In this document: positions 17,603 to 18,949 of the stretch, one piece after another
Numbering within the stretch: position 1 is the first letter of the stretch
How the letters are laid out: each line of letters opens with the position of its first letter
Origin: Candidatus Helarchaeota archaeon
GTDB lineage: Archaea; Asgardarchaeota; Lokiarchaeia; Helarchaeales; RDOG01
Direction of reading: 5' to 3'
NCBI GenBank assembly: GCA_029838215.1
Contig: JALGVI010000059.1
Span: 1 to 22,468 of the forward strand
Length of the DNA stretch: 22,468 nt
Position numbers and translations under genes: made by a program
The notes under the pieces: generated by a model
The model's database searches: none
Seen by the model: the letters and a program-made list of their open reading frames with translations, nothing else
What the model was told of the DNA's origin: nothing

Positions 17603-17720
17603 AGCCCGGTAGTGTAGTGGCCAAATCACGCGGCCTGCGTGAGACTAGTCATCGAGGGCTCTGAGCGAATTTCTCGAGAGAAACCCTTGGACCACGGTTC
17701 GAATCCGTGCCGGGCTACCA
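17603..17720 (+). tRNA. tRNA-Gln(CUG) with two introns (21/22: 17625-17648; 37/38: 17665-17682)
   Basis: Acceptor AGCCCGG/CCGGGCT + A + CCA; T-arm CACGG-TTCGAAT-CCGTG; anticodon stem GAGGG/CCCTT; anticodon CTG at 17661-17663. Removing 24 + 18 nt gives a canonical 76-nt tRNA, and both introns show BHB/BHL geometry. Confidence 0.88.
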
Positions 17721-17727: not shown

Positions 17728-18015
17728 AAAACTCTGTTAGAAAGAATTTTAGGTCGAGGAAAATTCGCCATGATGAAAGCAATAGCTTCTTTTTTCGTGC
17801 AGAATTCTGCTTGATCTCATGGGAACTGTTTCTGCTGATAATGATGCCATCCGATTCAATCCAAGCATGATGCTTCAACAATACTTAAATTAAAGAATCA
17901 AGTTATCTCAATATATTGAATTAGAATCAAGTCAATTTCGAAAATGAAAAAATTTCGAACGTGGAAGCACTTCTAAAGAAAGTTTCTGGATTCGTCATGA
18001 TTTATAGGTGATTTA

Positions 18016-18651
18016 ATGGTAGAAATTTACAGCGTATTACCGAATGGCGAAACAACATTTGTAACCACTCCAACCGTTCAAGATGCGTTAGATAGTGAAG
18101 CTGTTCTCATAATTATAGACGACGACACGCGTCTCATCTATTTATGGAAAGGTCAAAAATGTTCCGTAGCCAAGAAATTCATTGGTGCCCGGACTTCCCA
18201 ACAAGTGCGGGGCGCTCGCGGTTTGATGTATAAGGTTTTGCCCGTGGACGAAGGTGAAGAACCGAACGAATTTATGGCTATTAGACAAAAGGAAGTAGCA
18301 CAGAGTCCCGATCAACGATTTGCTCGACCCGAAGTGGCAGATGATGCTGAAGCCGCAAAACTGGGTGCACCTCCAACTGCAGCTCCGAAAGGATTATCAG
18401 AAGATTTGAAGAAGCAATTATCTGAAGAACCCTTGCCTGATGGATTTGAACAAGAGTCTGTCATCGTGGGCACTGATCTTTATGGCGTGGCAAAATCAAC
18501 AGCCAAAATTCTGGGGAAAGAAGTGACAAAGAGCGAATTCATGAAGACCGAACTCCCTGATGGCACTATTTTTGATCCCGCTTATGGTCTACGTTTCTTG
18601 ATAAAAAGTGGGAAAGTAGCCGCCATTGAATTGTTGAAAAGAAAGAGTTGA
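18016..18651 (+). CDS. Gelsolin/villin-like single-domain protein with Pro/Ala linker and uncharacterised C-terminal domain
   Basis: ALDSEAVLIIIDDDTRLIYLWKGQKCSVAKKFIGART...VLPVDEGEEPNEF fits the gelsolin-repeat pattern. Linker is GAPPTAAP. GGTGA RBS upstream. Confidence 0.8.
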   Translation: MVEIYSVLPNGETTFVTTPTVQDALDSEAVLIIIDDDTRLIYLWKGQKCSVAKKFIGARTSQQVRGARGLMYKVLPVDEGEEPNEFMAIRQKEVAQSPDQRFARPEVADDAEAAKLGAPPTAAPKGLSEDLKKQLSEEPLPDGFEQESVIVGTDLYGVAKSTAKILGKEVTKSEFMKTELPDGTIFDPAYGLRFLIKSGKVAAIELLKRKS

Positions 18652-18911
18652 TGAAAATGTCCCAGCAATTAGATGAAATCTTGAAGGAAGACCTTCCAGA
18701 AGGTTATGAACGAGAAGGTGTTGTCATCCCTCCCGTTTTCTACGCAGTAACCGAGAAAAAAACAATGGTCTTGGGAAAAGAAGTCGTGAAAAAAGAAATT
18801 GAAAGGCAAGATGACCTCCCCGAAGGGTTTATTTTTTCTGCTGACTATACTCCACGACTCTACATTAAAGGTGGCAAAGTCGTAGCCGTTGAAATTCTCA
18901 AGAAAGTGTAA
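18651..18911 (+). CDS. Stand-alone paralogue of the C-terminal domain of the upstream gelsolin-like protein
   Basis: Ungapped-to-one-gap alignment gives about 31/70 identities by hand (LP.G.E.E.V...Y.V...LGKEV.K.E...LP.G.IF...Y..R..IK.GKV.A.E.LK). TGATG stop/start overlap. Confidence 0.85.
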   Translation: MKMSQQLDEILKEDLPEGYEREGVVIPPVFYAVTEKKTMVLGKEVVKKEIERQDDLPEGFIFSADYTPRLYIKGGKVVAVEILKKV

Positions 18912-18949
18912 TTTCTTCTCTTTTTATCATTTTTTTCGTTTTTTTATCA

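Follow-up and report, generated by a model that had tools for sequence, protein, structure and literature searches.

A compact gelsolin-X protein and a stand-alone X-domain protein are encoded by a conserved gene pair in Helarchaeales

Organization of the locus

The DNA analyzed here (the window) comprises 22,468 nucleotides, positions 1 to 22,468 of the forward strand of contig JALGVI010000059.1 from a Candidatus Helarchaeota archaeon (assembly GCA_029838215.1). It carries two adjacent genes, gene 1 (P0001) and gene 2 (P0002), which encode a compact protein with one gelsolin domain followed by a C-terminal domain, termed X here, and a small protein consisting of the X domain alone (Table 1). 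A preliminary description based on the letters of this stretch proposed that gene 1 combines a gelsolin domain, a flexible linker and a domain of about 80 amino acids, and that gene 2 is a free, translationally coupled copy of this last domain. The three-part architecture of gene 1 was borne out by a Pfam match and an AlphaFold2 model, which assign 85 amino acids to the beta-rich C-terminal domain.

Table 1. Features of the gene pair in the window and of related genes at other loci.
Feature	Location	Strand	Basis or remark
Gene 1 (P0001), compact 1DGelX-type protein, 211 aa	18016..18651	+	Open reading frame
Gelsolin/cofilin-fold domain of gene 1, residues 1-95	18016..18300	+	Pfam, PDB sequence match, Foldseek
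Flexible linker of gene 1, residues about 96-126, poorly conserved	18301..18393	+	pLDDT, orthologue identity
X domain of gene 1, residues 127-211	18394..18648	+	AlphaFold2 model, homology with gene 2
Gene 2 (P0002), stand-alone X-domain protein	18651..18911 (86 aa) or from ATG 18657 (84 aa)	+	Open reading frame
GGTGA, Shine-Dalgarno-like motif, 4 nt 5' of the gene 1 ATG	18007..18011	+	Sequence reading
Oligo-T tracts (T5, T7, T6) just 3' of the gene 2 stop	18921..18945	+	Sequence reading
Gel-X paralogue P0058, 278 aa	G000:C111:22027-22278		Same genome
Gel-X paralogue P0059, 222 aa	G000:C154:9199-9435		Same genome
Roadblock/LC7 gene beside long Gel-X gene	L003 8-862; 1438-2274	+; -	Same genome (G000:C111)
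Loki-type Gel-X gene and free X gene	L059 140-1186 and 1221-1487		
Loki-type Gel-X gene and free X gene	L060 960-2006 and 2041-2307		
Gel-X-X, 442 aa	L054 1226-2554	-	
Gel-X, 420 aa, with about 200 aa of heptad-like Q/E/K-rich coiled coil after X	L055 680-1942	-	Window's order

The TGA stop codon of gene 1 occupies positions 18649-18651 and an ATG lies at 18651-18653, which gives the letters TGATG at the junction. Because the orthologues of gene 2 start at residues matching the second ATG ('MSQ...'), and because a database protein identical to gene 2 has 84 amino acids, the two genes either overlap by 1 nt or are 5 nt apart. A spacer of 5-24 nt separates them in seven related loci and in most of these contains a Shine-Dalgarno-like GGTG/GGAG motif; similar GGTG/GAGG motifs precede gene 1 in several related loci. 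What relatives retain is the close operon linkage, not coupling by overlap. The TGATG overlap noted in the preliminary description is thus present in the letters of the window, but it competes with the alternative start and is not kept in relatives, so that translational coupling through it would at most be a feature of this genome.

In archaea, oligo-T tracts act as transcription terminators, and those behind gene 2 likely serve as the terminator of a two-gene unit. On reading of the sequence, no oligo-T tract of the terminator kind was found between genes 1 and 2. Since such tracts follow gene 2 and none lies between the genes, the two look like a single transcription unit.

Gene 1 contains one gelsolin domain

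Pfam PF00626 matches residues 22-87 of gene 1 with 23.2 bits, above the curated cut-off of 21. A phmmer search of PDB sequences gave the gelsolin-domain protein ProGel from Thorarchaeota (7c2f_B) as the best match (E 1.2e-10), followed by two-domain gelsolins (2DGels) from Loki-, Heimdall- and Thorarchaeota. An AlphaFold2 model of gene 1, built from 22 homologues, superimposes on 7c2f_B with a template modelling (TM) score of 0.85 (by target), a root-mean-square deviation of 1.9 Å and 32% identity, and in the Foldseek comparison of this model with the PDB, 7c2f_B is the best of 43 gelsolin-family chains at E <= 1e-3. The gelsolin fold, in which a long helix packs on a central beta-sheet, had been proposed for the N-terminal domain in the preliminary description and is therefore confirmed by profile and structure comparison alike. 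The predicted local distance difference test score (pLDDT) of the model is about 90 over residues 1-100 and about 80 over the C-terminal domain, with values below 50 for residues 105-124, which are predicted to be disordered.

The W-x-G motif of gelsolin domains is represented in gene 1 by L43-W44-K45-G46. W44 and G46 are invariant across 18 gelsolin (Gel) domains, and K54, F55 and A58 are, like these two, invariant in the Gel-domain alignment A4. The full-length homologues of gene 1 (n=22, 197-307 amino acids) come exclusively from Asgard archaea, mostly from Helarchaeota. Actin is encoded in the same genome (440 bits), and by homology with characterized Asgard gelsolins the gelsolin domain of gene 1 can be expected to bind actin. 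Gene 1 lacks the second gelsolin domain that would define it as an Asgard 2DGel.

Gene 2 is a free copy of the X domain

A BLASTP comparison of gene 1 residues 127-209 with gene 2 residues 3-85 revealed 35 identities over 84 positions (42%) with an E value of 2e-18 for this single comparison, in good agreement with the earlier hand alignment, which had given about 44%. The two sequences have conserved PxG, YxxR and E motifs in common. A model of gene 2, built with AlphaFold2 from a mixed alignment of 23 copies, reached a pLDDT of 88.4 and a predicted TM score of 0.73, and consists of a helix (residues 3-12) followed by five beta-strands. The same order of one helix and five strands is found in the model of the gene 1 X domain (helix 129-137; strands 144-151, 154-165, 168-178, 190-197 and 200-209).

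The X domain matched no Pfam or NCBIfam family, and its profile retrieved nothing from the PDB sequences except a chance-level match (E 0.62). In the ESM Atlas, a feature search produced no usable match, and a shape search returned three clusters (TM 0.67-0.74), all of them from Asgard archaea, one of which is named 'putative Gelsolin-like domain-containing protein'. We considered X as a degenerate gelsolin domain, which would make gene 1 a cryptic 2DGel, and rejected this candidate: an hhalign comparison of the X profile with the Gel profile gave a probability of 0.15%. Gelsolin chains were also missing from the lists of structures matching the X model, which is not decisive in itself. A resemblance of X to Roadblock/HBXIP domains (VIA-align Z 2.8) was too weak to be used.

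The X domain is widespread in Asgard archaea and very probably corresponds to domain X of 1DGelX

Of 301 sampled Asgard genomes, 269 contain a match to the X profile, as do 88 of the 90 high-quality ones. There is usually a single match per genome outside Lokiarchaeia and two to six within this class. The domain is found nearly always near the C-terminus of 260-345 aa frames, where it is attached to a single gelsolin domain. Five translated examples, from Odinarchaeum LCB_4 (286 amino acids), a Thor-type genome (315), a Hod-labelled genome (301), family f16 (304) and a Loki genome (273), all have a gelsolin domain, a long P/K/E-rich linker, X and a short tail. An exhaustive profile search of 1.84 billion proteins found 225 representatives; one of the matches, a 3481-aa bacterial repeat protein (P0144), looks like a false positive caused by its repeats.

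The architecture of gene 1, an N-terminal gelsolin/cofilin domain with a non-gelsolin C-terminal region, is that of Thor 1DGelX, for which calcium-independent severing, nucleation and bundling of actin have been reported, ProGel alone having weak activity (Akil et al. 2020, PMC7444086). Its domain X could not be crystallised, and X alone could not be produced according to the preprint; the authors modelled it as a coiled coil using I-TASSER and proposed that the extension of 1DGelX holds an element binding to the side of the filament (PMC7444086 and its preprint). In the Thor-type family f10, the X profile matches 65 of 76 genomes, with one match each. A family member of 305 amino acids from Thorarchaeota SMTZ1-45, an assembly on which Akil et al. 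drew, matches both domains of gene 1 (E 1e-28), and its residues 177-254 align with gene 2 (36% identity, E 2e-15); the published construct is that of SMTZ1-83. In five Thor-type genomes, gelsolin matches fall in frames of 93-114, 199-267 and 307-332 amino acids, and the only ones above 270 amino acids (307 and 332) belong to the X-domain family, an X match being listed for the 332-aa frame.

Because it is homologous to the C-terminal region of single-gelsolin proteins from Thor, Odin, Hod and Loki genomes, the beta-rich domain appears, as a well-supported inference from these alignments, to be the folded core of the published domain X. This answers with good probability a question that the preliminary description had left open. 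In contrast to the published coiled coil, the models obtained here are beta-rich, and it was probably the low-complexity linker that gave rise to the coiled-coil prediction. Gene 1 also differs from the Thor-type proteins in being about 100 amino acids shorter, with a linker of about 30 residues instead of the 70-110 P/K/E-rich residues of the long forms. It ends two to three residues past the X domain and thus has no counterpart of their C-terminal tail, and the Thor protein has no free X gene as a companion, each Thor-type genome having one X match. Without the long linker and the tail, gene 1 is classified by its sequence as a truncated, order-specific paralogue of the 1DGelX kind. ProGel (7C2F), the closest match to its gelsolin domain in sequence and structure, is a gelsolin domain alone with weak activity and without X, which gene 1 possesses.

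The gene pair is conserved in Helarchaeales and under purifying selection

Proteins of the gene 1 type (197-220 amino acids) and of the gene 2 type (83-92 amino acids) occur on the same contigs. In all eight inspected loci, which include the window, four metagenome contigs (L012, L013, L014 and L016) and three genomes (L051, L052 and L053), gene 2 follows gene 1 directly on the same strand. The distribution was analyzed in 31 Lokiarchaeia genomes, seven from the window's order and 24 from two other families. A small frame adjoins a frame of 209-216 amino acids in five of the seven, neither a gene 1-type nor a gene 2-type frame was found in the two remaining genomes (93% and 82% complete), and neither gene was found in any of the 24; within this sample the short form and the free copy are therefore confined to the window's order. 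The layout is kept across the whole spread of the Helarchaeales pair, down to identities of 42-63%. The conservation that the preliminary description had asked about is thus well documented.

Between orthologues, the proportion of synonymous differences (pS) is about 0.75, so that synonymous sites are saturated. The proportion of nonsynonymous differences (pN) reaches 0.31 in the gelsolin domain and 0.30 in the gene 1 X domain, but only 0.21 in gene 2. The median amino acid identities among orthologues are 55% for the gelsolin domain, 55% for the gene 1 X domain and 66% for gene 2, compared with 16% for the linker. Both genes are under purifying selection, and gene 2 is the most constrained of the three modules. 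These values bear on the idea that gene 2 has no function and was left behind by a partial tandem duplication or a gene split. Gene 2 is indeed short, is not assigned to any known family and duplicates the 3' portion of the gene upstream, as a remnant might. Against this stand 33 intact homologues of 83-92 amino acids with 68-100% identity, the low pN at saturated synonymous sites, the Shine-Dalgarno-like motif that gene 2 has for itself in most relatives, and a confidently predicted fold (pLDDT 88). A remnant is accordingly very improbable, and conservation together with pN/pS rules out a pseudogene for practical purposes.

In a first tree of X domains (tree 1), the gene 1 X domains and the gene 2 proteins each form a monophyletic clade, and the internal branching of one mirrors that of the other, as expected if the pair dates from a common ancestor. 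The relationship between these two clades and the long forms is a polytomy in this tree.

The same genome encodes three Gel-X paralogues, namely gene 1, the canonical P0058 and P0059, in addition to the free copy. At the end of contig C99 (about 27.6 kb) lies a frame in which gelsolin is matched two or three times, and other gelsolin-domain frames are located on C16 and C69. From these paralogues and frames it follows that the gelsolin family has expanded in this genome.

The surroundings of the pair vary among the loci. In the window, the neighbours on the 3' side are two convergent ABC-2 permease genes. An eIF-6 gene lies 3' of the pair in L013, L014, L015, L016, L052 and L053 and further downstream in L012, and ABC-2 transporter genes adjoin the pair in the window, L012 and L051, being located between the pair and eIF-6 in L012. 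This synteny is probably without functional meaning. ARAGORN reported no tRNA over the whole window, including positions 17603-17720, although tRNAs with non-canonical introns may escape this program.

Free and doubled X domains have appeared repeatedly

Free X proteins have arisen at least three times, one of the further origins again lying directly behind the parental gene. This case is seen in two Logan contigs (L059 and L060), where a 348-aa gene from another, Loki-type subfamily with the order gelsolin, linker, X and tail is followed, after a spacer of 34 nt, by a free X gene of 88 amino acids. This free X shares 55% identity with the neighbouring X domain (E 4e-29) and only 33% with gene 2. 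In a second tree (tree 2), from which the very long-branched P0059 was omitted, the free X and the neighbour's X are sisters (99/94) within the Loki-type clade (100/99). No small-frame relative of this free X was seen in the 301 reference genomes, which marks the pair as a young, local event.

Two X domains can also reside in one chain. Some Lokiarchaeia encode Gel-X-X proteins such as that of L054, and two stretches matched by the X profile were found in P0089, P0090 and P0106. With one gelsolin and two X domains, the Gel-X-X proteins (L054, P0089 and P0090) have the composition of gene 1 plus gene 2, but their X domains are fused and arose by a separate duplication in a different X subfamily. 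On a contig of 975 bp (L058, positions 1-975), an 87-aa free X is located between a gene ending in PYPY...CxxC...C and the start of a gelsolin-domain gene with PYPY; this looks like another neighbourhood of X and Gel, with X preceding Gel.

Outside the short pair, the canonical long Gel-X gene adjoins a gene for a Roadblock/LC7-domain protein (~130 amino acids; 284 in this genome) in Odin, Thor-type, Hod-labelled and Loki genomes as well as in the genome studied here (L019, L023, L047, L048 and L049). The short pair in the window has no Roadblock/LC7 neighbour. The pan-Asgard linkage of the long gelsolin gene to a Roadblock/MglB-like gene hints at GTPase-linked control of actin. The C-termini of the long proteins P0060, P0061, P0062 and P0063 (L047-L050; Odin, Thor-type, Hod-labelled and f16) carry an L..L.D..FFK-like motif followed by a K/E-rich segment. 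Neither gene 1 nor gene 2 has this motif, a candidate amphipathic helix or WH2-like element.

The literature searched contained no account of the X fold, of stand-alone X proteins or of the present operon, and the earlier statement that a paired stand-alone copy had not been described holds to this extent for the X domain. The nearest analogue in print comes from Lokiarchaeota, in which small proteins made of the Zn domain of the Loki 2DGel alone exist according to the relevant passages of Akil et al. 2022 (PMC9433394). As presented there, the Loki 2DGel-Zn protein resembles the system described here in combining an Asgard gelsolin, a linker and a non-gelsolin C-terminal domain with stand-alone copies of this domain in the same lineage. 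It differs in having two gelsolin domains and a putative Zn-binding extension instead of the beta-rich X, and these passages mention neither adjacency nor operon linkage of the free copies.

Possible roles of the free X domain

We tentatively favour, with a confidence a little short of even, the reading that genes 1 and 2 constitute a conserved, Helarchaeales-specific operon of the Asgard actin-regulation toolkit, in which gene 2 is an accessory subunit of gene 1 and not its inhibitor. The gelsolin domain of gene 1 would bind actin, as suggested by its homology with Thor ProGel in the actin complex 7C2F. X would provide a second contact and thereby convert a protein that binds monomers weakly into one that severs, nucleates and bundles, following the example of Thor 1DGelX. 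Gene 2 would then add a second X module to each gelsolin unit, so that the working particle would be Gel-X plus X. The two X domains might pair with each other or take neighbouring like sites on the filament. Such a pair would be equivalent to the fused Gel-X-X, and gene 2 would set the valency and the activity of gene 1. Four points suggest a second X module: the genes have stayed side by side, their presence and absence coincide, the arrangement has evolved again from another parent, and Gel-X-X proteins have the same composition. The fused proteins provide an argument of the Rosetta-stone type that two X modules act with one gelsolin domain.

Several observations weigh against this reading. 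A Foldseek search of the PDB with the X model gave a best E value of 0.1 with a TM score of about 0.2, and a wide VIA-align search reached a best Z of 4.9 for Cache/GAF/PAS-like sensor domains, which is below a meaningful level. In tree 2, the gene 1 X domains and gene 2 belong to one subfamily (96/97) and are not sisters, and an origin of gene 2 by simple tandem duplication of the X domain of gene 1 is not proven by the sequences at hand. The binding of X to X, to actin or to any other partner is hypothetical, and so is the homo- or heterodimerisation of X that had been supposed in the preliminary description. A prediction of the three-chain complex of the Gel domain, the gene 1 X domain and gene 2 (one run) gave neither support nor counter-evidence. 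The proposed activities are carried over from a Thor protein whose linker is longer and which ends in a C-terminal tail missing from gene 1. Finally, P0104, a 113-aa free X of the canonical long-form clade (99/96), has no gelsolin neighbour, which implies that a free X can work without an adjacent Gel-X gene.

The last case leads to the possibility that gene 2 is independent of gene 1: a stand-alone X adaptor for the ligand of X, be it the sides of F-actin or a non-actin partner such as a Roadblock/LC7 protein, with adjacency reflecting local duplication. Besides the orphan P0104, which lies among unrelated genes, this explanation draws on the portability of X. The domain is combined with a HeH/SAP/Rho_N-like motif in P0209 (219 amino acids; Pfam scores just under the cut-offs), with a Cys-rich, Zn-ribbon-like tail and with the coiled coil of L055 (Table 1), and it also stands at the N-terminus of a 444-aa protein. 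The Roadblock/LC7 gene beside long Gel-X genes, including that of this genome, would supply a candidate partner. An independent adaptor does not, on the other hand, account for the adjacency, orientation and short spacer kept across the Helarchaeales pair, nor for the coinciding presence and absence of genes 1 and 2. The arrangement also arose a second time independently, and duplication history alone does not explain its retention. We regard this possibility as unlikely.

Another explanation, which the preliminary description had offered as an alternative, makes gene 2 a competitor, or dominant-negative form, that takes the site of the gene 1 X domain on actin or on another X and thereby lowers valency, for example by shifting bundling or severing to capping. 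Small free copies of interaction domains often act as competitors. The fold and the PxG, YxxR and E motifs that gene 2 has in common with the gene 1 X domain make the same target plausible, and 1DGelX bundles short filaments, which implies a multivalency that a free X could break (PMC7444086). An inhibitor made in fixed stoichiometry from the same transcript would, however, make an ineffective switch, and one would hardly expect it to be better conserved than the domain that it supposedly antagonises, as gene 2 is. The fused Gel-X-X proteins likewise suggest that a second X is an added part and not an antagonist. For these reasons the accessory subunit is favoured over the competitor, which we consider doubtful, albeit slightly less so than the independent adaptor.

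The accessory-subunit reading can be taken a step further. The free X could be an obligate second subunit that pairs with, or binds beside, the X domain of its neighbour to form a two-component severing and bundling machine. This composition would have emerged on at least three occasions in Lokiarchaeia, through gene duplication within Helarchaeales, through a second gene duplication in a Loki-type lineage and through the in-frame doubling in Gel-X-X. We see this stronger form as possible rather than probable; if it is true, X would be a new Asgard-specific actin-binding or self-associating fold.

Implications for Asgard actin regulation

Few links between the actin regulation of archaea and that of eukaryotes have experimental support, and Asgard gelsolins are one of them; 1DGelX, their most active single-domain form, owes its activity to domain X (PMC7444086). 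The conserved core of X would be a small alpha+beta domain found in about nine of ten sampled Asgard genomes. Its repeated independent doubling, in separate genes and in fusions, was not found in the literature searched and offers an evolutionary hint about the mechanism. X occurs naturally as a stand-alone, strongly conserved protein of 84-88 amino acids, which provides a ready construct for structural and binding work, and the pair is a natural two-gene system for studying how valency may tune severing versus bundling. The main value of the finding is thus practical: a natural free X protein and a two-gene system with which the role of domain X in Asgard archaea may be resolved.

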